Shown here: one piece after another, positions 5,118 to 59,259 of the stretch
How positions within the stretch are numbered: the stretch's first letter is position 1
How the letters are laid out: each line of letters begins with the position of its first letter
Assembly (NCBI GenBank): GCA_045648705.1
Contig: JAZROO010000060.1
Span: forward strand, 4,238 to 68,237
Direction: 5' to 3'
Source of the DNA: Eubacteriales bacterium
GTDB lineage: Bacteria; Bacillota; Clostridia; Oscillospirales; QAKW01
DNA length: 64,000 bases
Notes under the pieces: generated by a model
Database searches by the model: none
The model's input: only the letters and a program-made list of their open reading frames with translations
What the model was told of the DNA's origin: nothing
Made by a program: the position numbers and the translations under genes

Positions 5118-5174
5118 AATCTCTCCTTTAAATATGATGATATTAAATTATAACAGAATACAATTATTATGTCA

Positions 5175-5203
5175 AAGAATAAACACCGCAAAAATGCGGT
5201 GTT
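5175..5203 (-). terminator. Intrinsic terminator after the dCMP deaminase gene
   Basis: Stem AACACCGCA / TGCGGTGTT with a T-rich tail on the minus strand. Confidence 0.5.
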
Positions 5204-5208
5204 TTTCA

Positions 5209-5694: not shown

Positions 5695-5706
5695 TTTTTA
5701 ACCTCT

Positions 5707-5739
5707 TACAAAAGCGGATGCCCAATGGACATCCGCTTT
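5707..5739 (-). terminator. Hairpin terminator after the small P-loop gene
   Basis: Stem AAAGCGGATG / CATCCGCTTT with T-runs on both sides. Confidence 0.45.
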
Positions 5740-5754
5740 TAATTTTATAGTTTA

Positions 5755-6162
5755 TTACACAAATTTAAGTACACTCTCAGGAGCATCATCAGCACTGGCA
5801 GAAACCATCACAGTAACATTTGTCTTAGATGTTTCTGTAAATTTCTCCAGGTTCTCAAGCAATTTGCCCAGAGCCTCTAAATCCTCGCCAACGATCTTCA
5901 AAATAGAATCAACATAAACAGATGTAATATCGTAGTTGCCTGCGAACAAGCCGAGAATAAAGCCTTCCAATGCGGCAATACCGTCAATTTTGTAGCTCTT
6001 AATATCAATCAATCTGGCCTTGGATGAAATATCAAGTTTCAATTTGTCACCGTATTCGATGCAAACAACGTTTCCGGCAGATTCTTTGGTTTCTTGATTT
6101 ACCATTTCAATCAAAGCCTTGGTTTTTCCAGTTCCTTTTTTTCCAATAATAACTTTAATCAT
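5755..6162 (-). CDS. Small P-loop NTPase-like protein of unknown function
   Basis: Walker A GKKGTGKT at residues 7-14 and a Walker-B-like VYVDSI. It is only 135 aa and has a good RBS (AGGAGGTAATCTC ATG). Confidence 0.6.
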   Translation of the reverse strand: MIKVIIGKKGTGKTKALIEMVNQETKESAGNVVCIEYGDKLKLDISSKARLIDIKSYKIDGIAALEGFILGLFAGNYDITSVYVDSILKIVGEDLEALGKLLENLEKFTETSKTNVTVMVSASADDAPESVLKFV

Positions 6163-40069: not shown

Positions 40070-41197
40070 CTAATCCTTAATAAGCAACTTCTGCAGTGCA
40101 ATATAGACCAAACCAATAATAATAAAGATCAGGACAAAATACATCCACGACATAGCAGAAGCAGTTGCAAAGTCAAAGTTGCCGATCTTATTTTCAATCA
40201 AAATAAGCAAAACGTTATCATTGCTTGAGAATGAATCGATGATGGTATAAACAACGTTAACGATAATAATGGGAGAAACACTGGGGAAAGTAATCAACCA
40301 GAAAGTTTCCCAACCCGTTGCACCCTCAACGTCAGAAGCCTCATACAACGAAGGAGAAATACCTTGTAATGCTGCCAAGAACAACAAAATCTGAATACCA
40401 GATTGCCAAATGATATTGAAAATCTTATCAGATACCTTGGTCATGTATTCCAATACGCCCTCCGGCAAACCGGTATTATTAAGAATTTCTGTGGCATCAG
40501 TTACTGCAAACAATGTTCCCTTTGCAGCCTCACCCTGCATAACGGTTGCTGCATCTGATTCAGCGTTAAACGCTTTCATAACAACACCCGTAGTTACAAT
40601 AACGGGAAGGAAGAAAATTGCTCTTACCAGACCTCTGCCAATAAATTTTCTATTCAAAAGAACTGCAACAAACAAGCTAAAAACAATAATGACAGGCACA
40701 TTAACCAGCAAGTCGCCAAGCGTTGTGGTTAATTTTTGCACAAAGTCTGCATTTTTCAATGCATTCAAGTAGTTTTCAGCACCTGCCCAAGTAGTTGCAT
40801 AGTTATCAAACATAGAAATGTGTGAAAACGAGAAATTCAAAGACATCAGCAACGGCTGTAAAAAGAAGAACAGAAAGCCCATAAACCAAGGCAAAACAAA
40901 CATAAATCCAACAAAGCCCTGACGTTGTTCATATGAAATACCGCCACGCTTTTTCTTGAATTTAGGCAATGTGGGGTCGACTTTTTTGGTCTTTTTCTTT
41001 TCTTCGGTCGTTACAACTTTTTTCTTGGACAATTTGATTTTAATTTTTTGTACTTTTTTTGCGAGTTTTAAACGTTTCTTTCTGAGAGCTTTCGCCTGAC
41101 GTGAAGTTGGTGACAATGTAGCTAATTTCTCATCAATTTCAGCAAAGACTTTATCTCTTGCAGCTTCGATCTCAGCAATATTAATTTTTTCAGCCAT
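40070..41197 (-). CDS. Sugar ABC transporter permease (MalF/CUT1 type), second pair, with an ~88-aa Lys-rich N-terminal extension
   Basis: EAA loop LYEASDVEGATGWETFWLITFPSVSP. The N-terminus is ...AKALRKKRLKLAKKVQKIKIKLSKKKVVTTEEKKKTKKV.... The start overlaps the upstream stop (TAATG). Confidence 0.85.
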   Translation of the reverse strand: MAEKINIAEIEAARDKVFAEIDEKLATLSPTSRQAKALRKKRLKLAKKVQKIKIKLSKKKVVTTEEKKKTKKVDPTLPKFKKKRGGISYEQRQGFVGFMFVLPWFMGFLFFFLQPLLMSLNFSFSHISMFDNYATTWAGAENYLNALKNADFVQKLTTTLGDLLVNVPVIIVFSLFVAVLLNRKFIGRGLVRAIFFLPVIVTTGVVMKAFNAESDAATVMQGEAAKGTLFAVTDATEILNNTGLPEGVLEYMTKVSDKIFNIIWQSGIQILLFLAALQGISPSLYEASDVEGATGWETFWLITFPSVSPIIIVNVVYTIIDSFSSNDNVLLILIENKIGNFDFATASAMSWMYFVLIFIIIGLVYIALQKLLIKD

Positions 41198-43506
41198 TAT
41201 TTGTCACCTCCTACTACAACAAAATCAGTAGCGGGGATTTTTACACCATTGTAGGATACATCAGTATCACCATAATTAACGTATACCTTAGCGCCGTTTT
41301 CAAATGTTGTGATTTTCAAATTTTCAGTAACAACGGTATAATCAGTGATCGTAGAAATGCCTACGGCATCATAAACAACCTTCAAACGCTTATAAGCATT
41401 TGCCATATCCTCTCCGAGCAAAGCATACTCGGTAGAATAATAATAATTATAGGATGTATCCTTCAAGTTGTTTGAAGACTCGTAAGAAAGAACAGTGTAC
41501 AAACCTACACCAAACTGTGCGGAACGTAAGATTACATCATCAGTTTCTGCACTCAAGTTCAGTGCGGGACCGGAAATTCGTGTCAATCCACGGAGCGCCA
41601 CATGATAGAAAGGAACGTCATCTCTTGCAAAATAAAGTTCACTGCTATAAATAGGGGCTTCAACTACATTGTTTACCGCAGGAAATACATAAGCATTACC
41701 TTTGGAGGTAGTAATAATGCCATCAGTTTTCTCGGCAGCATTATTCAAAATAGATGTAACAGAATTGGTCATTGCATCTCTTGTATACTCATCATCTGCA
41801 TTGTATGCAGGATAAGGATCATAACCAATTGTTGAGAAAGAATAGTTCTCAATTCCGGCATTTGAAGCTTCATCAACAAATTTAGAAGCAATTTCCATCA
41901 TTGCTGCCGGACGGAAGAGATAATGCGGAGTACGTGTCTTATCAACACGATTTAATGAAATAATGAATGGGAACAGCGCTACAGGCGACAAATCCAATCC
42001 ATAAACAGTAGAATTGATTTTAGTATATGAGCCGGACGGTCCAAAGAAATTAACCAAATCCACGTCAAATTGAAGCGGAACATTCAGTTCATCTGCAGTT
42101 CCCATCAATTGCTGAACGCCTTTTTTGCCGCCAAGCTTTGACTCGGGAACAACCTTGGTGCTTACGGAAGACTCCAAGCCGCCGCTATTCCAACCAATCA
42201 TACCGCAAATCATATTATCTACGCCCAAATCTGACAGGTCAGTTAAAATTTCTTCTGCTTGTTCAAAAGTGGTCATAGAATCAACACCAACATATGGGAA
42301 ACCAAGAAAATGCTTTGTGCGTTTATATGCGCCAATCAAAGTCACGTTCATAGGTGTGCCGTCATCTTTTTCTAAAGAATTCATTCCCAAGTCTTCTGTT
42401 AAGTATTGACGGTATTTTTGAGCCATTCCAATGTAATCCGCATCGTCGCCGGCCAAAGGATACACTCTCATTTTGAAGTTAGAGGGCAAAGTGTCTGAAT
42501 AATAAACACCGGCACCTGTTGTACCTGCACCGGTACGACGGGTTTGCGAATCACGGAGTTTAATTATCGGATAAGCAAAATTATAACTGTTAAGCATACC
42601 GGAACAATATGCCTTTAAAGTTACGTTGGCTTCACTCTGTGTCATAACAGAAATAAAAGCACTGTCATTCTTTTTGATGCCATAAACGGGCAAATGAATG
42701 TTTTCGGTTAAATCAATACCATAAAAGTTTTCGTTAATTGATCCAACATCCGTCGGGTCTTTTGCATAAACGTAGCCGTCATAAACGTTAACGTTATGGA
42801 AAGATTGATTGAACTTCATCAAAGAGCCCATACCATCGGGCAACAGAATATATCCTTCATCTTTAGGATTACCTGCGCCGAACATCTGCATCATACCGAT
42901 GCTTAAAATTCTGTTTTCCGCCATCTCGTTAATGGAATCGATAAGCAACTCAATTTCAAGATAATCATCTTTCAGAGTCAGCATCACAGGAATAATAAAT
43001 CCTGTTTCATTGCTATCGAAAAAATATGAGATGATCTGGCTATCGCCATAGGTTTCTGTAAAAACATTTGCCTCAGTAGAATTAATTTCGTATGTTTGGA
43101 AGTTTTCTGTTATGTAACTAACAGACAATTGCATTTGAGAAAGTTTTTTCGTTTCAGCATTTGCAACATTATCACGATCACTGTCGAGCGGATTTGAGAA
43201 GAAAACTGAAGAATCTTTTTTGTTCTCCAAAGCATATTCGCCGGTTATATAATCGAGATACAAAGCAAGATTTTTGTTTTCAGATACCTTTTCATAGCTC
43301 TCAGGTATTGTATAGTTAGCAGAACTTTCAAATAAACTGGGATCTACCTTTTGCGAAATTACGTTTTCGGAACCATTTTCTGCAGATTCTGTAGATTCAG
43401 CATCTGTGACAGCCTCTTCTTCATCTGCAAAAGCACAAACAGAAAATAACGAAATAAGCATAAGGACTGCAAGGAGCAGCGATATTATTTTTTTAGTTTT
43501 AAACAT
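41197..43506 (-). CDS. Secreted 769-aa protein of unknown function (from memory it resembles the DUF5696 family)
   Basis: Signal peptide MFKTKKIISLLLAVLMLISLFSVCAFA. No catalytic motif recognised. RBS GGAGGGGAG. The family call is unverified. Confidence 0.6.
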   Translation of the reverse strand: MFKTKKIISLLLAVLMLISLFSVCAFADEEEAVTDAESTESAENGSENVISQKVDPSLFESSANYTIPESYEKVSENKNLALYLDYITGEYALENKKDSSVFFSNPLDSDRDNVANAETKKLSQMQLSVSYITENFQTYEINSTEANVFTETYGDSQIISYFFDSNETGFIIPVMLTLKDDYLEIELLIDSINEMAENRILSIGMMQMFGAGNPKDEGYILLPDGMGSLMKFNQSFHNVNVYDGYVYAKDPTDVGSINENFYGIDLTENIHLPVYGIKKNDSAFISVMTQSEANVTLKAYCSGMLNSYNFAYPIIKLRDSQTRRTGAGTTGAGVYYSDTLPSNFKMRVYPLAGDDADYIGMAQKYRQYLTEDLGMNSLEKDDGTPMNVTLIGAYKRTKHFLGFPYVGVDSMTTFEQAEEILTDLSDLGVDNMICGMIGWNSGGLESSVSTKVVPESKLGGKKGVQQLMGTADELNVPLQFDVDLVNFFGPSGSYTKINSTVYGLDLSPVALFPFIISLNRVDKTRTPHYLFRPAAMMEIASKFVDEASNAGIENYSFSTIGYDPYPAYNADDEYTRDAMTNSVTSILNNAAEKTDGIITTSKGNAYVFPAVNNVVEAPIYSSELYFARDDVPFYHVALRGLTRISGPALNLSAETDDVILRSAQFGVGLYTVLSYESSNNLKDTSYNYYYSTEYALLGEDMANAYKRLKVVYDAVGISTITDYTVVTENLKITTFENGAKVYVNYGDTDVSYNGVKIPATDFVVVGGDK

Positions 43507-46625: not shown

Positions 46626-47594
46626 TTATTCATCAGAATATCTCTTGAGCAAGAGATTAACTACATACTTAAATCCAAGCATCATAACAAACAACACAAC
46701 CGACAGCGCTGCCGAATAACCCATTTCAAAACGCGTATGTGCGAAGTCTGAAACGTGCAAAACAATGGTATGCGCTGCATAATCGACTGACGGGAAACCA
46801 ACCAATGCCGATGAAATAGCACCAACAGAAAATGCTGTGGAAATCTGCATAACTGCACTAAACATCAAAGAGGGACCCATCTGCGGCAATGTGATATAGA
46901 TAAGTTCTTGGAATCTATTTCTTACACCATCGATGGCACCGGCCTCATTAAGTGCGGGATCCAAGTTTTGAAGACCGGCGACCAAAGCAAGGAAGCCTGT
47001 TCCCAAACTACACCACAACTGAACAATAATAACTATAGTAAGCATATAGTTCTTATCGGCCAACCATTGAATCGGCTCTGAAATAACATTAAGTTGCATC
47101 AATGTTGAATTAAGCAAACCGTACATATCACCGGAAAACACATACTGGAAAATAAAATAAATGTTAGCAAGTGTAGGTGCGTAAAAAAGTACGGTAAAGA
47201 ATGCACGACCAACCGGCGGCAAATCGTTAATAAACCATGCAAAGATAAAGCATAAGATATAACCAACCGGACCGGTAATAATAGCAAACTGAATGGTGTT
47301 CTTAAGAGCGATCAAAAAGACGTCATCCTCAAGAAACATTCTAAGATAGTTGTCCCAACCAATAAAAAGCGGGGCGTTGATAATGTCATATCTTGTGAAA
47401 GAAAGCACAAAACAGGACACAACCGGTATTATTGTGAACAGCGTAAAGAAAATCAAAAACGGTGCCATCAGAATATAGTTCCAATAGCCTTCCTTCGCCT
47501 GACGCCAAGTAAGAGAACACTTCTCAGAGAAGGTAAGTTTCTGCTTTTTCAGAAGTTCAAGTTCTTTTTGTTTTGAATTCAAAGCAACTGCCAT
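46626..47594 (-). CDS. Sugar ABC transporter permease (MalF/CUT1 type), first pair
   Basis: EAA loop LNEAGAIDGVRNRFQELIYITLPQMGP. The start overlaps the solute-binding protein stop (TAATG). Confidence 0.9.
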   Translation of the reverse strand: MAVALNSKQKELELLKKQKLTFSEKCSLTWRQAKEGYWNYILMAPFLIFFTLFTIIPVVSCFVLSFTRYDIINAPLFIGWDNYLRMFLEDDVFLIALKNTIQFAIITGPVGYILCFIFAWFINDLPPVGRAFFTVLFYAPTLANIYFIFQYVFSGDMYGLLNSTLMQLNVISEPIQWLADKNYMLTIVIIVQLWCSLGTGFLALVAGLQNLDPALNEAGAIDGVRNRFQELIYITLPQMGPSLMFSAVMQISTAFSVGAISSALVGFPSVDYAAHTIVLHVSDFAHTRFEMGYSAALSVVLFVMMLGFKYVVNLLLKRYSDE

Positions 47595-50500
47595 TAAATA
47601 TCAGCCTCCTCCGGAATTGAGAAATGGTACTCAGAACGTTTTCTCCAAATCTCATTGTTAATTTGATCGTCATAATAGAATAACATTTCGCGCTGATTGC
47701 TATACTCATTTGTTACGGCACGGAATGCGTTGGTTACCATACGGCTGACATAGTAACCGCCGATAACTTCACCGATTTCCTTGACACTCTTTCTTTGCTC
47801 TTTAATCATTACAGCATGATCATGATCCCAACCGATCATATCGAATGCCTCAAGGTTTGCCGTGGTGTATCTGGCAACAGAACCAATTGCCATTTCTACA
47901 CGTCTACCATACTGAGCAGCAATATCAGCGGATGTCCACCAATTAATGAATGTCCAGGAATCCTTTTCTTTTTGTTCTTTAACTTTTTTAGATTTCGCTA
48001 CACTTTTGATTACGATACTGGCAGTAAGACCGGAAGACTCTTCCGTTCTGTTAATCTTGCCTGTTTTCTCATCAACGGTTCCGGGAATAGGAGCCATAGC
48101 CCACAATCCACGAAGCTCAGGAGCGGAATTATCAATAAATGTTGCCTGAGAATACGGTTGGAATGCCAAAGGCATCTCGCCGCTTCTGAAACGAGCATAA
48201 AAACTATATGTAATCGGGAAACTATACATTCTATAGTAATCAGTCCACTTTGTAAAGGCGTCAACCGCGTATTGCTCTGTAAAGCAAGTGCGAGAGCCAT
48301 CTGCAGAATAGACAGATCCATCTCTCTGCTGAATCAGAGTAAAGAAGAGACCGCCACCGGTATTTTGGTTCAAACCAACCGTCATGTTATTGGACTGAAT
48401 AACCGGAAGAATGGCATCAAATTCATCCCATGTATTCGGTGCTTTAATGCCCAACTCAGCAAATACGTCAGTACGATAGAACATCATTTCAAAGTTCTGA
48501 GTTTCAGGTAAACCAAAAGTCTTAACGTATTTAGAGCCATCCTCTGTGGTAGTATTTACAGTATACGGAGCCATTGCATAGGTTGAAAAACGAGAAACAA
48601 CTTCGTCGTATCCTTCCATATCCTGCAGTTCAACCAGAGCGCCACGAACACCAAGGTTGATGGGCTCAGTTCTGGAAACGTGAAGCGCAACGTTGGGACC
48701 TTTACCGGCAATAATTGCCTTAGACAAAATTCCAAGAGGAACCAGTGAAATATTAACACCAATGCCTGTTTGCGGAGTAAAGTAGTTATCAGTCAAGGTT
48801 TTCAAAGCGATTGCTTGGTCACGACCTGTACCTACCCAAACGTCAATTGCGCGTTCGCCTTCTTCAGCGTCACCGCCAACACCGGTGTAATCGTCTACGA
48901 AAGAAGACCAGAAAGAACGAATTTCATGGCTAAGACCCTGAATAAAGGTAGCCTTTTGTGAGGGAAGATTTGCACCGCTTCCTGCGATATAAATTTTATC
49001 CAAGCTCAAAGGTTGATCACGGATGTCCAACAACCAGTTACCCAGAGAACTGATATTGTCTTTAAATCCGGAAAGACGTTCCGGAATAGAATAGGGCTTT
49101 TGGATAAAATCTTCCATCTGAACAACAAGAGTGTTCAAAATTTCAGAATCACCGCCGCCTTTGCCATCATTTAAAGAATCAACATAAGCCTTTGTTTCTC
49201 TCATTGATTCGATTGCAGAAGACATCATTTCCTCAAGATCAGAAATTCTGGTAAACAATTGATAGTCGCGATTGGTATCCGGAGTAATACCGGTGATCAA
49301 CACGATTTTTCTATATATATAATTTAATTGGTAGACAATGTTCTCAACATCGCGGTATGTACTGGACAATTCACCAATACATGCTTCCAAAGAAAGCGTG
49401 TGAGTGCCCGCTGTCAAATAAAACTTATAGTTTTCATTTTGGCCGTCCGCAGTTTTGCGACCGGCAACGGTATATTGATATCCTGTTTTGTAATCAAATT
49501 TAATACTATAAGCCTCTTTAAAAGGAATCTCATTGTCAATATACAATGTTCTGTAAGAGGCTTTGCCGCGCTGATATGACTGTCTATAGCGGAACGAGAT
49601 TTCATAAAGACCATCTTCAGGAACCTCAATTGTCCAGTTTACACGATTTCCGCTCTTAGCCCAGTTTGTGCCGCCCAAGGTGTTATATACAGTTGTGCTG
49701 ACACTATAAGGTGTAATTTTAGCATCACTGCGGTCAAAAACCATTTGGATAAGAGCATCACTCTTATCAGTAAATTGTTCGGCCTCAATGTAAGCATCAC
49801 CTGCAGCATTGGTAATCATTTCTGTAGATTCTTGTGCACCTGCAGAAAGAGCATTTCCCAAATACTCATCATATGTAATCTTACTACCGGCGTTGTGCAA
49901 CTTAATGTAGTCCAAGCCAAAAGCGCCGTTTTCCAAATTGATCGTAAGCGTATGAGTACCTGCGGTCAAGTAGTATCTGTATGAATCCAGATATCTTCCC
50001 TCTGCATCACTCACATCTTTTGTGATCCAGTCAGGAGCTTGAATCTGATTGGGAAGCAATTCATTGCCAACTTTGTCGTGAGAAATCTTTCCATCAGTCA
50101 GCTCGTTAATCCAAACGCGCTTTAAATTCAAAATTCCGGACTCTTCAAAGGGATATTTTCCATCAATCATCAAACCGGTTTCGATGTCGTTACCGTTTTC
50201 ATTTTTGATGGGAAAATATTTGAGCTCTACGGCATACATACCGGTTTCAGGAACCTCAACGGTATATACAACATTGCCGGTGTTTTTGATAACAGCAACA
50301 CTTTCTTCACCCTCAAAGGTTGCTTTGTTCTCCACGTCAGCAGTGGCAGACGTGTAAGCAACACCATCAACTTCGATGGTCGGCAAAGATACGTCATAAG
50401 CCGCATATTTGTCATAATAATCAGCGTAGAGATTATCTCTGACAAAACCCGTTAAATAACTTTCAGTTTCATTAGGGTTTGCTGAATTCAAAAATTGATC

Positions 50501-50668
50501 CGCATTATAACCACCATCTGTCGCAGTGGATTGATCTGCGGTAGCTTCAGTCTCAACAGTCTCGCCCTCGGCAAATGCAATGACACTAAATGAAAGTGTC
50601 AATACAAAAACAAGAAGAAGACATATAGAAGACCGAAACAGCTTCTTTAGTGTACATCTGTTTGACAT
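47594..50668 (-). CDS. Giant (1024-aa) extracellular solute-binding protein with two N-terminal CBM-like beta-sandwich modules
   Basis: Signal peptide ending VIAFA|EGE with no lipobox Cys. Two related modules (YTVEVPETGMYAVELKY...YYLTAGTHTLTINLENG and WTIEVPEDGLYEISFRY...FYLTAGTHTLSLEACIG). The C-terminal half resembles family-1 carbohydrate solute-binding proteins. The ATG at 50668 lies 7 nt after GGAGG; the ORF-track TTG at 50770 is an over-extension. Confidence 0.8.
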   Translation of the reverse strand: MSNRCTLKKLFRSSICLLLVFVLTLSFSVIAFAEGETVETEATADQSTATDGGYNADQFLNSANPNETESYLTGFVRDNLYADYYDKYAAYDVSLPTIEVDGVAYTSATADVENKATFEGEESVAVIKNTGNVVYTVEVPETGMYAVELKYFPIKNENGNDIETGLMIDGKYPFEESGILNLKRVWINELTDGKISHDKVGNELLPNQIQAPDWITKDVSDAEGRYLDSYRYYLTAGTHTLTINLENGAFGLDYIKLHNAGSKITYDEYLGNALSAGAQESTEMITNAAGDAYIEAEQFTDKSDALIQMVFDRSDAKITPYSVSTTVYNTLGGTNWAKSGNRVNWTIEVPEDGLYEISFRYRQSYQRGKASYRTLYIDNEIPFKEAYSIKFDYKTGYQYTVAGRKTADGQNENYKFYLTAGTHTLSLEACIGELSSTYRDVENIVYQLNYIYRKIVLITGITPDTNRDYQLFTRISDLEEMMSSAIESMRETKAYVDSLNDGKGGGDSEILNTLVVQMEDFIQKPYSIPERLSGFKDNISSLGNWLLDIRDQPLSLDKIYIAGSGANLPSQKATFIQGLSHEIRSFWSSFVDDYTGVGGDAEEGERAIDVWVGTGRDQAIALKTLTDNYFTPQTGIGVNISLVPLGILSKAIIAGKGPNVALHVSRTEPINLGVRGALVELQDMEGYDEVVSRFSTYAMAPYTVNTTTEDGSKYVKTFGLPETQNFEMMFYRTDVFAELGIKAPNTWDEFDAILPVIQSNNMTVGLNQNTGGGLFFTLIQQRDGSVYSADGSRTCFTEQYAVDAFTKWTDYYRMYSFPITYSFYARFRSGEMPLAFQPYSQATFIDNSAPELRGLWAMAPIPGTVDEKTGKINRTEESSGLTASIVIKSVAKSKKVKEQKEKDSWTFINWWTSADIAAQYGRRVEMAIGSVARYTTANLEAFDMIGWDHDHAVMIKEQRKSVKEIGEVIGGYYVSRMVTNAFRAVTNEYSNQREMLFYYDDQINNEIWRKRSEYHFSIPEEADI

Positions 50669-50929
50669 TGCGTTACCTCCAACATTTTGATTACAAAACA
50701 AGATGGTTATATTTTGTGTTTTGACATAAAGGTTTTTATGCAAATTGAATAAATAATGACAAAAGTACAAAATAAGGCATCTTATATATGTTTTAGTTTA
50801 TCATATTATATAAACAAATTCAACAATAAATTAGTAAAAATAATAGTTTTTTTAAATTTTTTCGAATATTTTTGATAGCTTTTTTGATTTAATTTATTTT
50901 CAGACAGATTTCATTTTGTTCATAGTGCA

Positions 50930-50990: not shown

Positions 50991-52433
50991 TTATCGAGAA
51001 TTCAAAAGTCCCTGCTTGATATCCCACAACTTTTTAGAAAGATCAACATAATAAGTATGGGGATTTTCAAATCGTTTTACCTCATCCCAAAGCTTGTCAA
51101 TTTGTTCAGCGCAAAAAGCTCTCGAATCTTCAATTTTGGGGATATCATACACCAGTTTTCCTTTGTCAAAAATCCTTTTACAAAGCGGAACAGCGGTAAA
51201 ATTTTCCACCCATTTTTTCTTCCAAACATGAATGGGATCAAACAACAAATACGGCTTACTTTCATCTATTGTTTCATCATGCAGCGCTATGACATCAGCA
51301 ATAGCCTTACCGGTTTCGTTTGAATATAATCGATACACCTTTTTAAAATGGGGATTGGTGATTTTTTCAGGGTTTTCAGAGATTTTTATTCTCGGAATAA
51401 TCTCCCCTTCCTTTTCAACCGCAGCAAGTTTGTATACACCGCCAAACACAGGCTCACTCTTAGAGGTAATCAAACGTTCTCCCACGCCAAACATATCAAC
51501 CTGCGCACCTTGAAGAATCATTTCTCTGATAATATATTCATCAAGTGAATTCGATGCCATGATCTTACAATCAGGATATCCTGCCGCATCCAATACCTTT
51601 CTGATTTTTTTAGAAAGATAGGTAATATCGCCCGAATCAATTCTAACCGCAACAGGTCTGCAACCCTTGGGCGCCAACACTTCGTCAAAAACTTTTATCG
51701 CGTTCGGCAATCCGGAATGAAGAACATTATAAGTATCAATCAAGAGCACACAATTGTTAGGATACGTTTCAGCATACGCGGCAAAAGCTTCGTATTCAGT
51801 ATCAAATGTTTGCACCCAACTATGCGCCATGGTTCCACCGCTGGGAACACCATACAACATATCTGTCAGCACGTTTGAGGAACCGGAACATCCTGCAATA
51901 TAAGCAGATCTTGCACCCAGCACAGCACCGGCATATCCTTGCGCACGACGAGCACCAAACTCTGAAACCGTTCTTCCCTGCGCCGCACGAACAATTCGAT
52001 TGGCCTTGGTGGCAATCAAGGACTGATGATTAATGGTTAACAGAATCATGGTTTCAACAAGCTGCGCTTGAATTGCAGGACCACGCACCGTCAAAATCGG
52101 CTCACCGGGAAAAATCGGCATTCCTTCCGGCACCGCCCACACATCACACGCAAACTCAAAATTAGATAAATAATTTAAGAATTTTTCATCAAAAATCTTT
52201 TTCGATCGCAAAAACGCAATATCTTCCTCAGAAAAATTCAAAGTTTTCATATATTCAATAATCTGTTGAAGACCTGCTGCAATTGCAAAGCCACCACCAT
52301 CAGGTACGTTTCTAAAAAACATATCAAAATAAACTATTTGGTCACCCTTGCCTTTTAGCAAATAACCATTACTCATAGTAAATTCATAAAAATCATTCAA
52401 CATACTCATGCTGAATTTTTTATCAAAAAACAT
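50991..52433 (-). CDS. pncB: Nicotinate phosphoribosyltransferase
   Basis: 480 aa with TDFYEFTM-like DFYEFTMSNGY, GTMAHSWVQ, LLIDTYN and SNSLDE motifs. Confidence 0.9.
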   Translation of the reverse strand: MFFDKKFSMSMLNDFYEFTMSNGYLLKGKGDQIVYFDMFFRNVPDGGGFAIAAGLQQIIEYMKTLNFSEEDIAFLRSKKIFDEKFLNYLSNFEFACDVWAVPEGMPIFPGEPILTVRGPAIQAQLVETMILLTINHQSLIATKANRIVRAAQGRTVSEFGARRAQGYAGAVLGARSAYIAGCSGSSNVLTDMLYGVPSGGTMAHSWVQTFDTEYEAFAAYAETYPNNCVLLIDTYNVLHSGLPNAIKVFDEVLAPKGCRPVAVRIDSGDITYLSKKIRKVLDAAGYPDCKIMASNSLDEYIIREMILQGAQVDMFGVGERLITSKSEPVFGGVYKLAAVEKEGEIIPRIKISENPEKITNPHFKKVYRLYSNETGKAIADVIALHDETIDESKPYLLFDPIHVWKKKWVENFTAVPLCKRIFDKGKLVYDIPKIEDSRAFCAEQIDKLWDEVKRFENPHTYYVDLSKKLWDIKQGLLNSR

Positions 52434-52560: not shown

Positions 52561-52589
52561 TTGAAATGTAATATTTAGTATGTTAAAAT
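52561..52589 (+). promoter_or_regulatory. SigA-type promoter for the sigma factor / large membrane protein pair
   Basis: TTGAAA, a 17-nt spacer, then TGtTAAAAT (extended -10). Confidence 0.5.
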
Positions 52590-52620
52590 CTAATTAGTAT
52601 ATAAAAAAGAGGAGAATTAT

Positions 52621-53184
52621 ATGAAACGTATACTGGTTGAAAATATATTTGATGAACTCTATAAACAAACATTCAATGAGGCATACGGCTATATTTTAGC
52701 AAAAACGGGTGACCCCATTGTTTCTCTTGATGTTTTAAAAAAGTCATATACTGATCTTTTTAATTTCCTATTAAAACAAAAGAAAGACAACATAAAAAAC
52801 AAACGAATCCATCTCTTCAAAATCATTCAAAATAACTTAATTGCTGACAAAGAAACAAGTCAGCCCATTGATGACAAAAGCAACATTACAGACGATATTT
52901 TTTCCTCTTTGCAGCAAGAGCTTGACATTGAAATATCTCAACCCAAAACCCAAGAAGAATTAGAAGCAATGTTGGATGAACTTTTAAACCTCATTGCAAA
53001 GCAACCTGAAGCCCTACGACGCGCCTTCATTCTATATTTCTTATTTGATTTCAAAACAAGCCAAGTTGCAAGCGAACTTTGCATAAGCGAAAAAGAGGCA
53101 GAAAAGTACATTTTAGATTTAACAAAACAAGTACGTTCACTTTTTAGCCCCATCACTGAAGAACAACCGGAGGAAACCAAATGA
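52621..53184 (+). CDS. Divergent ECF-like RNA polymerase sigma factor
   Basis: Region-2-like N-terminus (YGYILAKTGDPIVSLDVLKKSY) and a region-4 HTH (LRRAFILYFLFDFKTSQVASELCISEKEAEKYILDL). The linker is long and acidic. Confidence 0.7.
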   Translation: MKRILVENIFDELYKQTFNEAYGYILAKTGDPIVSLDVLKKSYTDLFNFLLKQKKDNIKNKRIHLFKIIQNNLIADKETSQPIDDKSNITDDIFSSLQQELDIEISQPKTQEELEAMLDELLNLIAKQPEALRRAFILYFLFDFKTSQVASELCISEKEAEKYILDLTKQVRSLFSPITEEQPEETK

Positions 53185-56100
53185 AAGTAAGCGATTTACT
53201 CAATCAATTAAAACGCTACATTGCGCCAAACCCCGAAGCAATACAGGCGGAAATTTATGCCGAGATTCGCGCCACACAACGAGCAAAAAAATCTTTTTAT
53301 TTTAAGTTAATCGGCGGTTGTGTCTCTATCTTTTTAATCGTAACGGGGATCAGTTTTTATTTATGGAACTACTTCACCTTTGATTCTTCCACCAATATTA
53401 CCGGAGACGTTGCAAACCTCAGCCCCATAGTTTACGTTGCACCCAAATACGAAAAAAATAACGCCGCTCTCACCAATGCTTCAATCAACATTGTAACCAA
53501 GAACAGCATGAGCGTCAAAGAAGTAGAAAAATGTATATCTTTCACGCCCGAAGCATCGTATACAATAAAGAAAAAAGGGATCAATCGTTTTGAACTTAAC
53601 CTCAATGATCAATTAAAAAGCAATACATCTTATACTCTAAGTTCAAAAATTGAAAACAAAACCATCTATCGTTGGTCTTTGCAGACCGAATCCCCTTTTC
53701 AGATCACAAATGCCTATCCTGTCGGCGAACATGAAATTGATATCAACACTGCTATCGAAGTCAGTTTTTCCGAAAGCGGCGTTAATGCATTTGAAGAATA
53801 TTTTAATATCGTTCCAAAAGTACCGGGCACGTTCAAACACAATGGTAGAAATTGGCTCTTTCTGCCTTCCGAGCCTCTGCAACCATACACCGTTTATACT
53901 GTCAGCATTTCTTCCGATATCGCCAACACCGACGGTGAAACGCTGAATGAAGATTATGTTTTTTCATTCACAACCGGCCCCTCTGACGACAAATGGGCTT
54001 ACGTCGACAATAACACCTTTGATATTGCAGATATTTTTTCCACGAACACCGTTCCGTATGTGTCAGTTTATGCCAAAGGAATGACCTCGGCAACAGCAGA
54101 CATTACGATTTATAAACTTCCTGACAGTCAGTCTTATCAGGACCTTCACTCAAAATACAACAAAGATGCCATCATTTCCGCAAACATCATTAATGATGTC
54201 AACGCACTGCAATGTCCGATACAATCGCAATTTTCCGTTTCTGCCATCAAGTCTCCCGACAACGACCAATTGTATTATTTCAATTATCCCAAAGAGATGG
54301 AAGCCGGCTACTATGTAACACAAATCAACTGGAATGGCATAAAGTTATATCAGTTATTGCAAATCAATGATTTGATAGTATATGCCGCTGCTCACGATGG
54401 TTCATATGTCGTTTGGGTCAACAACGCTCAAACTGCCCTTCCTGCAGATAATGTTGTTGTAAAAATAGGTGATCAAACCGAAAAAACCGATCAAAACGGC
54501 ATTGCCACAATAAAGAAAACCGATGACGACGCTGAAAGTACCTATATTTCAATTTCCGCAGACACAATTCTCCCCTACATTCTTCACGCTCAAAATTCTA
54601 CCGACGAAACACCCAACGCTATCAGCGACTACTACACCTTCCTCTATACAAACAGCACGATTTATCACGAAAATGACACATTAAAGGTTTGGGGAACGGT
54701 AATAAAAAGATTTCAAAATTCTAAGGAACCGACAGTCACATTATACGCCCATTGGAACGACACAGAGTATGCTGTAAAATTAGACTCAAACGGTGCTTTT
54801 AATTTTGAGATACCAATTAAAAATTACAAACTTGATCAATACAGCGAACTGGCTTTGCGCATTAACGGTTATGACTGTAACAGTAAATATTTTGCTGTTG
54901 TTGACTACGAGTTGCCTGCCTATTCGCTTTCAATGCAAGCTGATAAAAATGCATATTTTGCAGGCAATGAAATTCATTACAATATTAACGCTTCCTATTT
55001 TGACGGAACACCTGTCGGCAACCTGTCACTGAATGATAACAACAACGCAACATTGGTTACCGACCATCTTGGAACCGCACAATATTCAAAAGCAGCAAAA
55101 ATTGATCCGGAAGTTTACGAGTATACCTTAAGCAGTTGCAAACCGCAAATCAACTGGCAATATTTTGAAACAAATTCAAGCATTGGTGCAACTGCTTTTG
55201 CAGAAACTCCGACATTGGTTTTTGAAAACAATGAATTTTTAGGCGCGGAACTCAAAAAAGAAACCAACGGATATACCATAGATATTAAAACCAACAAAAT
55301 AACCCTCGATAAAATCAACCAAATGTCTGCTTCCGAGTTTTCAGACATTTATGAGGATACCCCGACAGAGTATTTTTTAGGTGATGCTGTAGACAAAAAA
55401 ATCACACTCGAAATACACGAGATCACTTATGACCGCAATAAAATCGATAGTTATTACGACCCGATTCAAAAAAAATTACAGTTTAAATACGAATACATTC
55501 CCAAAGATTCAGTCATTAAATCAGACACTTTCACCACAAAGGATGGCTTGGCGACATTAGAAAATTACGTCATTCCTTCCTCCGAAGGAATTCGTTATTT
55601 AAAACTTTCTATGAAAGATGCGGCAGGAAAAAATTGCTTTGTTACAATTTATATTGACCACCAAGTTGAAGAAGATAGAGATCAATACGAATTTTCCGGC
55701 ATCGACCATAACGCTGATAAAAACGAAAAATTGCTGTTCAACGTTTACGATCCTAATACCAAGCAAAAATTGATCGGCTCATTTGTTTACTTGGTTGTAG
55801 GTGACGACTACTTCAAAGCAGGTATCTCGGAAAGCGGTAGTGCCTCATTTGTGTTTGACGAAAAGTGTTTGCCGGACGTAACGTTGTTTGGCGCTTATTT
55901 TGATGGAAAATTTTTACATCCTGTCACACCGCACAACATTACAGCGGATATTTCCGAGAAGAAGTTAAACATCCAGATTGTCTCCGACAAGAAAGAATAC
56001 GCTCCCGGTGATACCGTAACACTTGACGTTGTTACAACAAATCCTGAAGGAGCCCCTGTTAATGCTTCTTTCAATATTAACGTAATGGATCAAGCCCTCT

Positions 56101-58121
56101 TGACAATTGCAGACAATAATGGTGATATTTTATCCGAACTTTATTCACCCAGAGCACCCATGGATATTTATTCCTCACTTTATATTCAGCAATACGGTGA
56201 AGGAGGCGGAGGCGGAGAATCAACACGCTCGGATTTTGAAGACACTCCCGCATTCATCAATGGACAAACAGGTGCAGACGGCAAAGCAAAAGTTTCCTTC
56301 AATTTGCCGGATAGTTTGACTCGTTGGACAATCAGTGCACGCGCCATCACCAAAAATGCTGCTGCTAACGATACGCAAATTGAAATTGTCTGCACTAAAG
56401 ATATGTTTATTTCAGCGAAAGCCCCTGTCGGCGCTAAACCGCTTGACGATATCGTTATTCCCTACCGTTGTGATGGTTCGAAAATCTCAAAAGATAGCAC
56501 CATCAACATAACCGCAACGCTCTTGAAAGACGAGGCCGTCATCGGCACACAAAATGCTCAATATGACGCTACTAAATTACAATATTTTAATTTTGGTAAG
56601 CTAAAAGAAGGAAGTTACTCTATTCAAATAGATGCAACCTCCAAAACCGCTACCGACAGCATAAAAATACCTTTTGAGATTGTTTCAAGTAATCTCACTG
56701 TGAATACCATTAGTCAGCTGAATGAGCAATCCGATAGTGTCAGCGAACTGATACTAACGGATATACAATACGAACAATATACAAAACTGCTAAACCAATT
56801 ATTGATTAGTGGAAGCAGACGTATTGACCACGCCATTGCCGAACAATATGCACTGGCAATCAGCGAACACTTTGACCCCCTTGCCTACACAGATGTTGAT
56901 TGGGAATTTTTGAACGATTTCTGCATCAACGGTGGATACGCTCCTTATGTTGCCAGTGGCGAAAGCGACCTATTTTTGACTGCACGCATCGCTTCCCTCT
57001 TCCCCGAGGAGATTGACAAAGAATTCGCTTTATGGTATTTCAACGGCATTTTAAGCAACAAAGACGCCACATTGGAGGATATACTCTGTGCGCTTTGGGG
57101 CAAGGCATCATTACATGAAGCAGTTGAAAAGGATCTTGCTTATTATTACGGTGAAGGCAATACGCTCAGCACCGAGCAACAATTGTATATCGCACTTGCC
57201 TATGCCTACAGTGGAAACCATACCGCCGCAAACGAAATTTATTTAAAGCACATTCAGCCAAAGCTGATAAGAAATTCATCCGGCGCTTATCTTGAAGACA
57301 AAGATCCTTATATCATGGATCGTTGCAACAGTATGCTTTCTTTCTTGACAAGTCGCATCTCTTCAAAAGACGCCGATGCCATTTTATCATATCTGCAACA
57401 GAACGATTCAGAGACCGTTTTGCTCAGTCTTGAAATAATCGCCTATCTCTTGGATTACACACCAAACCTGGAAGGCAAAAACAGTGCTAAAATCACATTT
57501 GCAAACGGCGACGAGACTATCGTTGAATATCCAAAAATCGCGCCTTTTACATTCAAAATGAATCCCGAGGATTCTGTCGGTCTTACAGTCGAGTCTTTGC
57601 AAGGCGAGTCTATCGTCCGATTTAACAGTTCCACAAGCAGCACATTTATTCAAAAGAACGGCAAAAAAATCGGTGCCATTCCTTGCTATATTCCGCAGGT
57701 TGTAAATCTCGGCGATGATATGCCGATCAACATATCGGTTAACACAGACCAATTGAAAAGTAATAAAATAAACATCGTTTTCCCAAGTGGCATCCGCTAT
57801 CTTCAAAAATACATTGCCACCAACGACAACGTGTTTATTGAAGCATCAAAAGATTCTCGCTTTTTAACCATAACAACTGCTGATGTTGGTAATGTCGACA
57901 TTACTCTCTACTGCAAAGCAGCTTTACCCGGTTCATTTGTTTTTGAACCAATGATTTGTGTTGAAGACGAAAATCTAAATTACTTGGCAACCGACCCCTG
58001 CGAAATAACAATTGTAGATATTTTAAATCCAATTGAAGAAATTTCTGATGAAGAAGTTGCTGATGAAGAAACTTCTGACGAACAACCCCCATATGAAGAA
58101 ATAACTCCGAACGAACCTTAA
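53181..58121 (+). CDS. 1646-aa single-pass membrane protein: short cytoplasmic N-terminus, one membrane helix, an SbsA/Big_5-type Ig domain, then an alpha-2-macroglobulin-like (MG domains plus a thioester-less TED-like region) exodomain. Putative anti-sigma factor.
   Basis: The start overlaps the sigma gene stop (ATGA), and GGAGG lies 8 nt upstream. Membrane helix FKLIGGCVSIFLIVTGISFYLW. A2M hallmark RSDFEDTPAF...FNLPDSLTRWTISARA. At the position of the GCGEQ thioester the sequence is HAIAEQ. Confidence 0.75.
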   Translation: MKVSDLLNQLKRYIAPNPEAIQAEIYAEIRATQRAKKSFYFKLIGGCVSIFLIVTGISFYLWNYFTFDSSTNITGDVANLSPIVYVAPKYEKNNAALTNASINIVTKNSMSVKEVEKCISFTPEASYTIKKKGINRFELNLNDQLKSNTSYTLSSKIENKTIYRWSLQTESPFQITNAYPVGEHEIDINTAIEVSFSESGVNAFEEYFNIVPKVPGTFKHNGRNWLFLPSEPLQPYTVYTVSISSDIANTDGETLNEDYVFSFTTGPSDDKWAYVDNNTFDIADIFSTNTVPYVSVYAKGMTSATADITIYKLPDSQSYQDLHSKYNKDAIISANIINDVNALQCPIQSQFSVSAIKSPDNDQLYYFNYPKEMEAGYYVTQINWNGIKLYQLLQINDLIVYAAAHDGSYVVWVNNAQTALPADNVVVKIGDQTEKTDQNGIATIKKTDDDAESTYISISADTILPYILHAQNSTDETPNAISDYYTFLYTNSTIYHENDTLKVWGTVIKRFQNSKEPTVTLYAHWNDTEYAVKLDSNGAFNFEIPIKNYKLDQYSELALRINGYDCNSKYFAVVDYELPAYSLSMQADKNAYFAGNEIHYNINASYFDGTPVGNLSLNDNNNATLVTDHLGTAQYSKAAKIDPEVYEYTLSSCKPQINWQYFETNSSIGATAFAETPTLVFENNEFLGAELKKETNGYTIDIKTNKITLDKINQMSASEFSDIYEDTPTEYFLGDAVDKKITLEIHEITYDRNKIDSYYDPIQKKLQFKYEYIPKDSVIKSDTFTTKDGLATLENYVIPSSEGIRYLKLSMKDAAGKNCFVTIYIDHQVEEDRDQYEFSGIDHNADKNEKLLFNVYDPNTKQKLIGSFVYLVVGDDYFKAGISESGSASFVFDEKCLPDVTLFGAYFDGKFLHPVTPHNITADISEKKLNIQIVSDKKEYAPGDTVTLDVVTTNPEGAPVNASFNINVMDQALLTIADNNGDILSELYSPRAPMDIYSSLYIQQYGEGGGGGESTRSDFEDTPAFINGQTGADGKAKVSFNLPDSLTRWTISARAITKNAAANDTQIEIVCTKDMFISAKAPVGAKPLDDIVIPYRCDGSKISKDSTINITATLLKDEAVIGTQNAQYDATKLQYFNFGKLKEGSYSIQIDATSKTATDSIKIPFEIVSSNLTVNTISQLNEQSDSVSELILTDIQYEQYTKLLNQLLISGSRRIDHAIAEQYALAISEHFDPLAYTDVDWEFLNDFCINGGYAPYVASGESDLFLTARIASLFPEEIDKEFALWYFNGILSNKDATLEDILCALWGKASLHEAVEKDLAYYYGEGNTLSTEQQLYIALAYAYSGNHTAANEIYLKHIQPKLIRNSSGAYLEDKDPYIMDRCNSMLSFLTSRISSKDADAILSYLQQNDSETVLLSLEIIAYLLDYTPNLEGKNSAKITFANGDETIVEYPKIAPFTFKMNPEDSVGLTVESLQGESIVRFNSSTSSTFIQKNGKKIGAIPCYIPQVVNLGDDMPINISVNTDQLKSNKINIVFPSGIRYLQKYIATNDNVFIEASKDSRFLTITTADVGNVDITLYCKAALPGSFVFEPMICVEDENLNYLATDPCEITIVDILNPIEEISDEEVADEETSDEQPPYEEITPNEP

Positions 58122-58135
58122 AACCACTAAATAAC

Positions 58136-58170
58136 TATCCCCCACGGGAGACGAGCTCCCGTGGGGGATA
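58136..58170 (+). terminator. GC-rich 15-bp hairpin after the large gene
   Basis: TATCCCCCACGGGAG / CTCCCGTGGGGGATA. There is no T-run directly after it on the plus strand, but a second hairpin with a T-run follows. Confidence 0.5.
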
Positions 58171-58179
58171 AAAAGAAAA

Positions 58180-58207
58180 AAGACGAACTGAAAAGTTCGT
58201 CTTTTTA
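58180..58207. terminator. Bidirectional intrinsic terminator (rplS on minus, large gene on plus)
   Basis: AAGACGAAC / GTTCGTCTT flanked by TTTTT on both strands. Confidence 0.75.
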
Positions 58208-58555: not shown

Positions 58556-58656
58556 TGTAACTTCCTCCTTAAAATTCGGACATTCGTACGAGCAATTGCA
58601 GAGGACTGTCCGTATAATCACCAAGATATCATAACATACTATTTTCGATTTTGCAA
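58556..58656 (-). promoter_or_regulatory. rplS promoter plus a structured 5' leader (candidate L19 autoregulatory leader)
   Basis: On the minus strand: TTGCAA (58651-58656), a 17-nt spacer, then TGtTATGAT (58628-58633). The ~70-nt leader contains the CGGACA...TGTCCG stem (58577-58612). Confidence 0.5.
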
Positions 58657-59259
58657 GTACTTTTTATAATTTGTATTTTCAGAAAATCCAAACGTGGTTT
58701 GTTTGGGTGAAATTCTGTATGCTAAAATTGCTATTATCCACGTTACAAAAGTATTTAAAACCGCATACGGCGCCACGGTTACAAGGGTCGCCTCAAAGCG
58801 TTGGTAACGAAGATGACGTCCCAAAACATCAAACATCTCAAGCCAACAGGTATTACCGAGAAACGCTCTTCCGATTAGCAAAGATATTAACATTATTAAA
58901 AAAGCATTTACAATTGCTGCCACGCTCATCGTCCCAAGGCTTGTAATCATTGTATCAAGCCAACCGTATGAAGTCGCCGCAGCAATTAACAAAATTACTA
59001 AAACGACAGGTATCAGCATCAGCACATTTGAAAAACCAAAATAAAACAACGAGTAAATCAATTGACTGATCACAGCCACCGTAACAGCAGGTCCAACGCC
59101 CAATGCAGCAGCGGCATAATAAGTTCCGACATGTTCCAGCCGCATCGGTAACCCGCAATAATAACATATGCCAAAACAAGCAAAATTAGCAATTAAACAA
59201 AAAATGACTTTGAAGGTCATATTTCCCTGTTTTCTATTCATAAACAACAATAAAAACAC
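58639..59259 (-). CDS. Hypothetical polytopic membrane protein
   Basis: Five to six hydrophobic helices. The start is uncertain (GTG at 59259, TTG at 59250, ATG at 59241 or ATG at 59220); GAGGTG at 59258-59263 favours TTG at 59250. Confidence 0.55.

Follow-up and report, generated by a model that had tools for sequence, protein, structure and literature searches.

A giant membrane-anchored macroglobulin-fold protein, candidate anti-sigma factor of a divergent ECF-type sigma factor encoded by an overlapping gene in gut-type Clostridia

We analysed a 64,000-nucleotide (nt) stretch of a contig from a Eubacteriales bacterium (JAZROO010000060.1), here called the window and numbered from its first letter, and focused on two overlapping genes on its forward strand. 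The first encodes a 187-amino-acid (aa) protein that resembles sigma factors of the extracytoplasmic function (ECF) type. The second is a giant open reading frame (ORF) of 1646 aa, encoding a predicted single-pass membrane protein whose ectodomain has the fold of alpha-2-macroglobulin (A2M). A first-pass annotation, made from the sequence alone, had proposed the two as sigma and anti-sigma factor, with the A2M scaffold serving as the sensor. The features of the locus are collected in Table 1. The ATGA through which the two ORFs had been said to overlap is present, an AGGAG lies ahead of the first ATG, and the giant ORF has a GGAGGA ribosome-binding site at 53169-53174, 6 nt 5' of its own ATG. 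Because the pair is preceded by its own promoter and followed by terminator-like hairpins, we regard it as a self-contained two-gene operon. There is no space for a further anti-sigma gene inside this operon, and no other anti-sigma candidate is found there. The operon promoter starts at 52561, the first position of the annotated range, and the same extended -10 element also lies upstream of the sigma gene in six related loci (L001, L003, L009, L077, L080, and L081).

Table 1. Features of the sigma/A2M locus, in window coordinates
Feature	Position	Strand	Basis or description
Operon promoter	52561..52589	+	TTGAAA, 17-nt spacer, TG-n-TAAAAT (extended -10), housekeeping sigma-A type; consensus scan
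Sigma-like ORF, 187 aa; predicted divergent ECF-type sigma factor	52621..53184	+	ORF list; NCBIfam, hhalign, AlphaFold, Foldseek
Sigma-2-like three-helix domain, aa 3-76	52627..52848	+	Model helices 3-29, 32-52, 61-76; region 2 aligned by Foldseek and hhalign
Sigma-4 domain with helix-turn-helix, aa 111-175	52951..53145	+	Model helices 111-126, 130-140, 146-153, 157-175; Pfam Sigma70_r4_2
ATGA start/stop overlap, translational coupling	53181..53184	+	Sequence reading
Giant ORF, 1646 aa, single-pass membrane protein with A2M-fold ectodomain, proposed anti-sigma	53181..58121	+
Cytoplasmic N-terminal segment, aa 1-38, proposed sigma-binding module	53181..53294	+	Family alignment
Single transmembrane helix, aa ∼39-63, N-terminus inside	53295..53369	+	Kyte-Doolittle hydropathy, peak at aa 43-61
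Big_5 (SbsA-type) Ig-like domain, aa 171-265	53691..53975	+	Pfam, 36.1 bits (cut-off 23.6)
A2M bait-region domain (A2M_BRD, PF07703), aa 853-975	55737..56105	+	Pfam, 25.9 bits (cut-off 22.7)
Disordered Gly-rich loop (…YGEGGGGGEST…) at A2M bait position, aa 999-1018	56175..56234	+	pLDDT 30-40
A2M family domain (PF00207), aa 1030-1094, holding LPDSLTRWTISARA	56268..56462	+	Pfam, 37.3 bits (cut-off 21)
All-helical TED-like domain without thioester, aa 1195-1425	56763..57455	+	Model residues 749-979, ∼230 residues
C-terminal beta-sandwich domains (CUB/MG8-like), aa 1433-1612	57477..58016	+	Model residues 987-1166; Foldseek alignment
Acidic disordered C-terminal tail, aa 1617-1646	58029..58118	+	pLDDT below 40
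Two terminator-like hairpins between giant ORF and convergent rplS	58135..58206	.	Terminator scan

Sequence models recognised the small protein only faintly. Pfam returned a single match, Sigma70_r4_2 at aa 119-164, just under its cut-off (24.5 versus 25.7 bits), and no match to Sigma70_r2. All NCBIfam ECF matches likewise fell below their curated cut-offs, including TIGR02937 (32.9 bits; cut-off, 42.9) and TIGR02985, which aligned end-to-end (aa 9-172; E 7.6e-10). Compared with the sequences of the Protein Data Bank (PDB), the profile of the sigma family found the sigma-4 domains of FliA and SigF only, plus a spurious designed repeat protein. The AlphaFold model, built from a 15-sequence family alignment (pLDDT, 79.8), consists of a three-helix and a four-helix domain separated by a disordered linker, with no sigma-3. 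The top Foldseek PDB matches of this model were all ECF sigmas aligned over ∼175 columns: SigL, SigH, AlgU, SigW, and sigma-E, followed by RpoE/NepR and CnrH. Two of the matching entries, 4cxf and 5uxx, are the CnrY and NepR complexes.

An exhaustive HMMER search with the sigma family profile retrieved 19 representatives at E ≤ 1e-30, 239 at ≤ 1e-10, and 7,493 at ≤ 1e-3, and all of these relatives were 170 to 190 aa long and matched end-to-end. Among 61 sampled relatives, Pfam found Sigma70_r4_2 in 53 and Sigma70_r2 in 23, and the window sigma is a fast-evolving branch that grades into ordinary r2-positive ECFs. Aligned by hhalign with one of the bona fide ECF sigmas described below from contigs of the candidate phyla radiation (CPR) type, it reached 83.6% probability over 158 columns. 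On the strength of the predicted structure, which settles its identity, we assign the small protein to the ECF-type sigma factors, as a divergent member. The annotated region-4 helix-turn-helix is thus borne out by the fold matches and by the modelled sigma-4 domain, with the Pfam r4_2 match lying just under its cut-off.

A genome scan with the giant protein alone as query gave no relatives, and the family alignment was used as the query instead. Its family consists of 15 full-length relatives (P0001 to P0015; 29 to 64% identity) from uncultured, gut-type Eubacteriales metagenome-assembled genomes (MAGs) and metagenomes. Three Pfam models, A2M, A2M_BRD, and Big_5 (the last with two matching stretches), exceeded their cut-offs, and bMG3, MG2, and MG3 matched below theirs. 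At the A2M domain, the family profile aligned to human A2M and TEP1. The AlphaFold model covers aa 447-1646 (pLDDT, 79.6; pTM, 0.58), with the N-terminal 446 residues outside the model, and it shows a chain of beta-sandwiches, a disordered loop at the bait position, a helical domain, further beta-sandwiches, and a disordered acidic tail. Foldseek matched this model to the Escherichia coli A2M ECAM (5a42; E 1.1e-38) and to the Salmonella A2M, SaA2M (4u48; E 1.6e-37), and also to TEP1/TEP1r, A2ML1, CD109, and C5, with query TM-scores of 0.48 to 0.49 for the matches. By family models and by fold, the ectodomain belongs to the A2M/TEP superfamily.

All of the domain elements read by the first-pass annotation were recovered. 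Big_5, placed by it at nt ∼53688-53975, is found by Pfam within 3 nt of that position; the macroglobulin (MG)-like beta-sandwich units are matched by the modelled beta-sandwich chain; the RSDFEDTPAF hallmark is present; and the helical region resembling a thioester-containing domain (TED) is seen in the model, with no match to the Pfam TED models in that region. The Gly-rich loop sits directly before RSDFEDTPAF, which fits the motif R-x-x-F-x-[DE]-T. The CxEQ thioester motif was absent from the giant protein and its 18 closest relatives (P0001 to P0019), whereas distant YfaS-type matches carry it; where we place the thioester motif in the alignment of the TED-like region, the family reads GS(R/T)R(I/L)DH.

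The predicted topology of the giant protein agrees with the annotated arrangement of ∼38 cytoplasmic residues, one membrane helix, and a huge exodomain. Hydropathy showed no second transmembrane (TM)-like segment, and the C-terminal tail has neither a second TM helix nor a sortase motif. Five Lys/Arg residues precede the TM helix and none follow it, so the N-terminus is predicted to lie inside, which leaves a predicted ectodomain of ∼1580 residues. The same N-in, single-pass topology, with basic residues before the helix and acidic residues after it, was predicted from hydropathy and the positive-inside rule for 15 of the 15 family members. The cytoplasmic segment (aa 1-38) contains two amphipathic helix-like stretches parted by Pro16, then a basic stretch, and in the window family follows the pattern MKLKDLLxxLKxxIxPDxExIxxxIxxxV…KK, then the TM helix. 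Its mean pairwise identity is 33%, so that its conservation is close to that of the whole protein (38%). A hidden Markov model (HMM) of these 38 residues retrieved the partner protein of locus L082, whose sigma is only ∼20% identical to that of the window, with an E value of 1.6e-6 among 1,108 N-termini, where the noise floor, set by a transketolase match, was at ∼E 2e-3.

The most conserved part of the giant protein, at 50 to 55% identity, is the juxtamembrane region together with Big_5. The juxtamembrane region (aa 64-170; window 53370-53690) has a mean pairwise identity of 50% versus 38% overall, and it may contain a site for shedding or for binding a partner; in our reading, its sequence appears Ig-like and not SEAL-like. 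A different start was seen in P0019 (1368 aa, from a Logan assembly), a partial relative with 28% identity over 31% of the query. This protein begins with an apparent lipoprotein signal (…LSSC) in place of the cytoplasmic segment and TM helix, which, judged from the residues at its start, would add a third way of anchoring to those seen in the clade.

The pairing of the sigma and A2M-like genes was kept in all nine Clostridial loci examined (the window, L001, L002, L003, L009, L077, L080, L081, and L082). Starting from the giant protein, we found a sigma homolog directly upstream in every readable contig (L001/L010, L003/L008, L009, L080, L081, and L002). The genomic context running from pncB to rplS was shared by L001/L010, L003/L008, L009, L080, and L081, while the pairs of L002 and L082 adjoin ruvABC and not pncB/rplS. 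A start from sigma homologs led to the same result: downstream of P0039 (46% identity) lies a 1660-aa A2M-like gene that overlaps it by 4 nt, and downstream of P0075 (∼20% identity; E 1e-25) a 1426-aa A2M-like gene beside ruvABC. For P0130, more distant again (E 3e-17), the overlapping downstream gene encodes a 239-aa single-pass protein that is not A2M-like. Since this partner too has ∼36 cytoplasmic residues ahead of its TM helix, short N-termini appear typical of the partners of this sigma family.

Clostridia also contain a sigma-less clade of A2M-like proteins (L011 to L014, from Ruminiclostridium and Thermoclostridium MAGs) with 23 to 24% identity to the giant protein. These have only ∼22 basic, low-complexity residues before the TM helix. 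The cytoplasmic module is present in all sigma-linked Clostridial proteins, including that of L082, and absent in the sigma-less ones. Two of the paired loci showed additional features. In L003 (11061-13361), three extra genes lie between the A2M-like gene and rplS, encoding a 307-aa protein with an fn3 domain, another of 207 aa, and a Y1 transposase of the IS200 type, which looks like a local insertion. In L002, the sigma gene (5450-5992) overlaps the end of an upstream inositol-monophosphatase-family gene (4671-5453), and, from this arrangement, the pair may be transcribed within a longer operon.

The next relatives of the giant protein, P0016 and P0018 (23 to 26% identity), came from groundwater-type metagenomes, with Candidatus Uhrbacteria as the one named record. 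Each overlaps a preceding gene for a canonical ECF sigma, with Pfam scores of 56 to 62 bits for r2 and 39 to 48 bits for r4_2. A metagenome scan extended this group to 62 CPR-type A2M-like loci, of which the 58 with enough upstream DNA were evaluated. Because the mixed Clostridial/CPR alignment was too divergent to yield search patterns, a CPR-only alignment was used. A bona fide ECF sigma gene lay directly upstream on the same strand in 32 of the 58 loci, with gaps of -20 to +147 nt, and overlapped the A2M-like gene in 19 of those 32; in the other 26, no sigma was found within the fetched ±3 kb. The recurrence of the pair in this unrelated lineage, together with the nine Clostridial loci, answers positively the earlier question of whether the adjacency is conserved in relatives.

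The sigma-linked and sigma-less CPR-type proteins differ in their N-termini. The first TM helix starts at residue 63 to 114 in all of the sigma-linked proteins and at residue 1 to 60 in all of the sigma-less ones, and a conserved cytoplasmic N-terminal domain of 60 to 110 residues is present in every sigma-linked protein and in 0 of the 26 sigma-less ones. An HMM built on half of the sigma-linked cytoplasmic N-termini recovered every one of the 15 that had been held out, at E 1.6e-8 to 3e-28, and not one of the 26 proteins without a sigma (best E, 0.12). A rough neighbor-joining tree of the CPR-type ectodomains requires at least 4 independent gains or losses of the sigma, and the sigma-less lineages nested in the sigma-linked clade (L020; L021/23/34/62; L042) have each lost the N-terminal domain as well. 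Such joint presence and absence of a cytoplasmic domain and a neighbouring ECF sigma gene is, at the genomic level, the mark of an anti-sigma domain. The CPR-type N-terminal domains had no Pfam match at E ≤ 10, to known anti-sigma families or others.

Two further features of the CPR-type loci were observed. In about two-thirds of the CPR-type relatives, a Hint/intein-like domain of 129 residues is inserted in the Gly-rich bait-position loop; this was seen in L004/L015 (P0016 aa 1107-1235), in L006 (P0018 aa ∼1113-1245), and in 20 further CPR-type loci. The domain starts with Cys, ends with His-Asn, and is followed by Asp, so that splicing is unlikely and self-cleavage possible. We considered the insert as a marker of sigma-linked proteins and rejected it, since its presence is independent of the sigma gene (with/without: 10/5 sigma-linked versus 12/6 sigma-less). 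Further, the next gene after the A2M-like one belongs to the Memo family in CPR-type loci, whether or not a sigma is present (L004/L005, 11594-12358; L007, 8054-9787), and its product is a possible functional partner of the macroglobulin-like protein in these loci.

Taken together, these observations suggest that the giant protein is probably the anti-sigma factor of the overlapping sigma. The fuller account, in which a sigma/anti-sigma pair uses an A2M scaffold as its sensor, fits the locus best and is in our judgement fairly likely. Under this account, the ∼38-residue cytoplasmic N-terminus (helix, proline, helix, basic stretch) would hold the sigma inactive at the membrane, and the thioester-less, Type II-like ectodomain would act as the extracytoplasmic sensor. 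The most likely trigger would be proteolytic attack on the ectodomain, beginning at the bait-position loop (aa ∼999-1018); further shedding or trimming near the membrane would follow, after which cleavage of the TM helix by a site-2 protease would release the sigma. The short length of the N-terminus is not disqualifying, because CnrY and NepR are short two-helix anti-sigma peptides, and 30 to 45 residues can suffice to hold an ECF sigma.

As to the signal, protease attack would be the most natural one, given that the flexible bait-position loop is retained and that bait-dependent trapping by MagD, a Type II A2M, offers a precedent. We hold protease sensing through this loop to be plausible, though less likely than not. 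A more elaborate version, which we consider rather doubtful, would make the ectodomain a protease receptor: a host or competitor protease would cut the bait loop, and the resulting rearrangement or shedding would license intramembrane cleavage and release the ECF sigma. Gut Clostridia and CPR-type bacteria would then share this design, the latter having a larger cytoplasmic domain and, in many cases, a self-cleaving Hint domain within the bait loop.

It is important to note that a number of observations weigh against the proposed pair or against protease as its signal. Synteny among seven of the nine Clostridial loci means that their adjacency partly reflects shared ancestry. The operon promoter is of the housekeeping type in all syntenic loci, and no ECF-type autoregulatory promoter motif is visible upstream of the sigma gene. 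While the A2M match and the conserved adjacency stand from the original proposal, and the co-occurrence of the CPR-type N-terminal domain with the sigma gene adds to them, the N-terminus itself matched no known anti-sigma family (zf-HC2/ZAS, RskA, RsgI_N, DUF4179, FecR, and others): when aa 1-73 were scanned with Pfam at E ≤ 10, nothing came up beyond CyanoTRADDas_TM, with 20.4 bits (cut-off, 24.3), and Sigma_reg_N, with 13.6 bits (cut-off, 26.3), and the latter, the best candidate for an anti-sigma match, lay mostly over the TM helix. In hhalign, the Clostridial 38-residue segment was co-linear with the two C-terminal helices of the CPR-type N-terminus at a level that was not significant (P 0.003 to 0.007; probability, 2 to 11%), and the best E value in an HMM comparison of the two was 0.006. 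For this reason, the CPR correlation supports the window protein by analogy only.

The remaining objections concern protease sensing. The missing thioester counts against it, as does the bait-position loop, which is short (∼20 residues) and varies in length and composition within the family, being absent or replaced by other short loops in some members. RseP-type site-2 proteases do not accept large extracellular stubs, and the ∼940-residue stub that a cut at the bait position would leave is too large for such an enzyme. Bait cleavage by itself would thus not open the way to intramembrane proteolysis, and one has to assume in addition either that the ectodomain is shed by another cut close to the membrane or that a conformational relay operates. 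The juxtamembrane autoproteolysis of RsgI shows that multi-step anti-sigma schemes exist (PMC10328401; 10.1101/2023.06.27.546760).

Several of these points would be accommodated if the giant protein were an anti-sigma factor whose A2M scaffold senses something other than a protease, such as a cell-wall or glycan ligand, a mechanical signal, or envelope integrity, with the fold serving as a large, rigid or conformationally switchable stalk in the manner of the modular RsgI ectodomains. The absence of the thioester is consistent with this, as is a bait-position loop that is short and not kept across the whole family, and conservation peaks at the juxtamembrane region and Big_5 and not at the bait or TED regions, which also speaks against protease sensing. 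The window neighbourhood is moreover rich in carbohydrate-uptake genes, and RsgI anti-sigmas combine autoproteolysis with polysaccharide or cell-wall cues (PMC10328401; 10.1101/2023.06.27.546760). However, the full A2M architecture (bait-region domain, flexible loop, TED-like domain, and C-terminal domains) is kept, which a simple stalk would not need; the thioester-less MagD still works by bait cleavage (PMC5764988); and neither L002 nor L082 has the carbohydrate-uptake neighbours. We regard a non-protease cue as possible, with a chance well short of even.

The giant protein might instead be no anti-sigma factor at all, and serve as a membrane-anchored protease trap or shield at the cell surface, co-expressed with or controlled by the sigma, with its N-terminus acting only as a signal-anchor. 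Such a role would fit the lack of a recognised anti-sigma domain, the very short cytoplasmic segment, the housekeeping promoter, the existence of sigma-less TM-anchored A2M-like proteins in Clostridia and CPR-type contigs, and the example of the Type II A2M MagD, an inner-membrane-associated protease trap (PMC5764988). A plain anchor, however, needs no conserved two-helix cytoplasmic segment, and this one is kept even where the sigma is only ∼20% identical. Sigma-less Clostridial relatives carry short basic N-termini in its place, the CPR-type cytoplasmic domain is gained and lost together with the sigma gene, and the operon offers no other protein as the anti-sigma. We therefore consider a trap or shield unlikely. 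Least of all do we expect the small protein to be a degenerate sigma-like fold, for instance a DNA-binding or adaptor protein in some other membrane complex: Pfam region 2 is absent, region 4 falls under its cut-off, the NCBIfam ECF matches lie far below theirs, and sigma-4 alone is detectable against PDB sequences, but the model predicts both domains at good confidence and resembles ECF sigmas along ∼175 columns, the relatives shade continuously into r2-positive ECFs, and the CPR-type counterparts are canonical ECFs, which makes this reading very improbable.

The surroundings of the pair are those of an ordinary chromosome. Its neighbours are pncB (50991..52433, reverse strand), a 1058-aa solute-binding-like protein, rplS, a YfbR-like HD protein, DUF4364, and gyrB; by Pfam, the other large ORFs of the window are ordinary chromosomal genes as well (Tex, PGI, RnfC, Der, Ffh, and SecDF), and the GC content is even throughout. 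No penicillin-binding protein (PBP) was found by Pfam among the 14 large or neighbouring ORFs of the window, all of which are housekeeping or transport genes. The 1058-aa protein (47594-50770, reverse strand) has a CBM_35 match and is the first in an ABC permease operon; this solute-binding protein and pncB adjoin the sigma/A2M pair in L001, L003, L077, L080, and L081, and not in L002 or L082. Beside ABC permease genes, a 769-aa DUF5696 protein (E 4e-150) is encoded at 41197-43506 (reverse strand), in the carbohydrate-uptake cluster that lies upstream of the pair. On the other side, a 206-aa multi-pass membrane protein with no Pfam match (58639-59259, reverse strand) is kept beside the YfbR-like HD gene in several ortholog loci.

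The nearby ABC operon had been put forward as a candidate target of the sigma. The pair persists without this operon in L002 and L082, and thus there is no evidence for it as the target; nor did a motif search find a second copy of the operon promoter motif (52561..52589) anywhere in the window.

Anti-sigma factors are known with many kinds of sensor modules, and in the literature that we searched, a macroglobulin scaffold, that is, a shape-changing protease trap, is not described as one. We found no publication linking A2M or macroglobulin proteins with anti-sigma factors, and the main text of the ECF reclassification paper makes no mention of A2M-type partners. The public records looked up for these proteins were all labelled hypothetical or uncharacterised. 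The recurrence of the pairing in distant bacteria suggests an undescribed kind of anti-sigma sensor. If the proposed role is correct, protease attack at the cell surface would be tied directly to gene expression, as a transcriptional protease alarm, and thioester-less bacterial macroglobulins would gain a testable function beyond the Gram-negatives. It would also mean that human-gut Clostridia share a signalling module with CPR-type bacteria, whose genomes are small and in which few regulators are understood, and that two compact candidate sigma-binding modules of the cytoplasmic side have been missed by current domain libraries.

Among known A2Ms, the Type I proteins ECAM (YfhM) and SaA2M are the best structural matches to the giant protein, with which they have in common the chain of MG domains, the bait-region domain, the TED, and the C-terminal domains. 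The first-pass annotation had named ECAM as its example of bacterial A2Ms, and here it has to be corrected, since the giant protein is not ECAM-like. E. coli YfhM is a lipoprotein; the giant protein, unlike it, is anchored by an N-terminal TM helix and not through a lipobox. Type I A2Ms have the CxEQ thioester and a co-encoded PBP1c (pbpC) (PMC5764988); both were tested, PBP1c among the 14 scanned ORFs, and are absent, so the giant protein is not a Type I member, and without CxEQ it is Type II-like by the published division (PMC5764988). The Type II protein MagD has the A2M fold without CxEQ, is associated with the cytoplasmic membrane, and is presumed to face external proteases (PMC5764988, PMC3735191), which compares with the giant protein and its proposed role; the bait sequence of MagD is short, as is the candidate bait loop here, and MagD still traps protease after bait cleavage although it lacks the thioester (PMC5764988). 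It differs in being a periplasmic, Gram-negative protein that is stabilised by MagB and encoded in a six-gene mag operon with MagA, MagB, and MagF, whereas the giant protein has its own N-terminal TM anchor, belongs to a lineage of Clostridial MAGs, and is encoded with a sigma in a two-gene operon in place of the six-gene one. No mag-type partners were found around the pair, and the likeness to Type II is limited to the missing thioester.

Among anti-sigma factors, the class II minimal ones, CnrY and NepR, are very short, mostly two-helix sigma-binding peptides, which compare with the proposed sigma-binding module of aa 1-38; they differ in that no sequence similarity to aa 1-38 was detected and in that they have no large ectodomain. 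A parallel in overall layout is given by sigma-E/RseA, sigma-W/RsiW, and sigma-V/RsiV. As in the window pair, a small sigma with sigma-2 and sigma-4 domains is encoded there together with a translationally coupled partner gene at +1, and the partner is a single-pass, N-in protein that combines an N-terminal segment in the cytoplasm with a sensor (in the window pair, a proposed one) outside it. The window partner departs from these in its ∼38 cytoplasmic residues, which match no known anti-sigma family, in its ∼1580-residue A2M ectodomain, and in the housekeeping promoter of its operon. Those systems are controlled by regulated intramembrane proteolysis, whereas for the window pair a proteolytic cascade is a proposal.

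The SigI/RsgI systems of Clostridia and Bacilli offer a comparison within the Firmicutes. Like the giant protein, RsgI proteins are single-pass, with a short N-terminal sigma-binding segment (in our case, a putative one) and large, exchangeable extracellular modules, and ectodomain cleavage is their first signalling step, as would be the case for the window pair. In RsgI, autoproteolysis takes place in a juxtamembrane SEAL domain, and the extracellular sensors are modular (PMC10328401, 10.1101/2023.06.27.546760). The two systems differ in that the 187-aa window sigma is ECF-like and not SigI-like and its partner has no RsgI_N match. Moreover, where RsgI sensors are carbohydrate-binding (CBM), glycoside hydrolase (GH), or PA14 modules, the proposed sensor of the window pair is an A2M scaffold.

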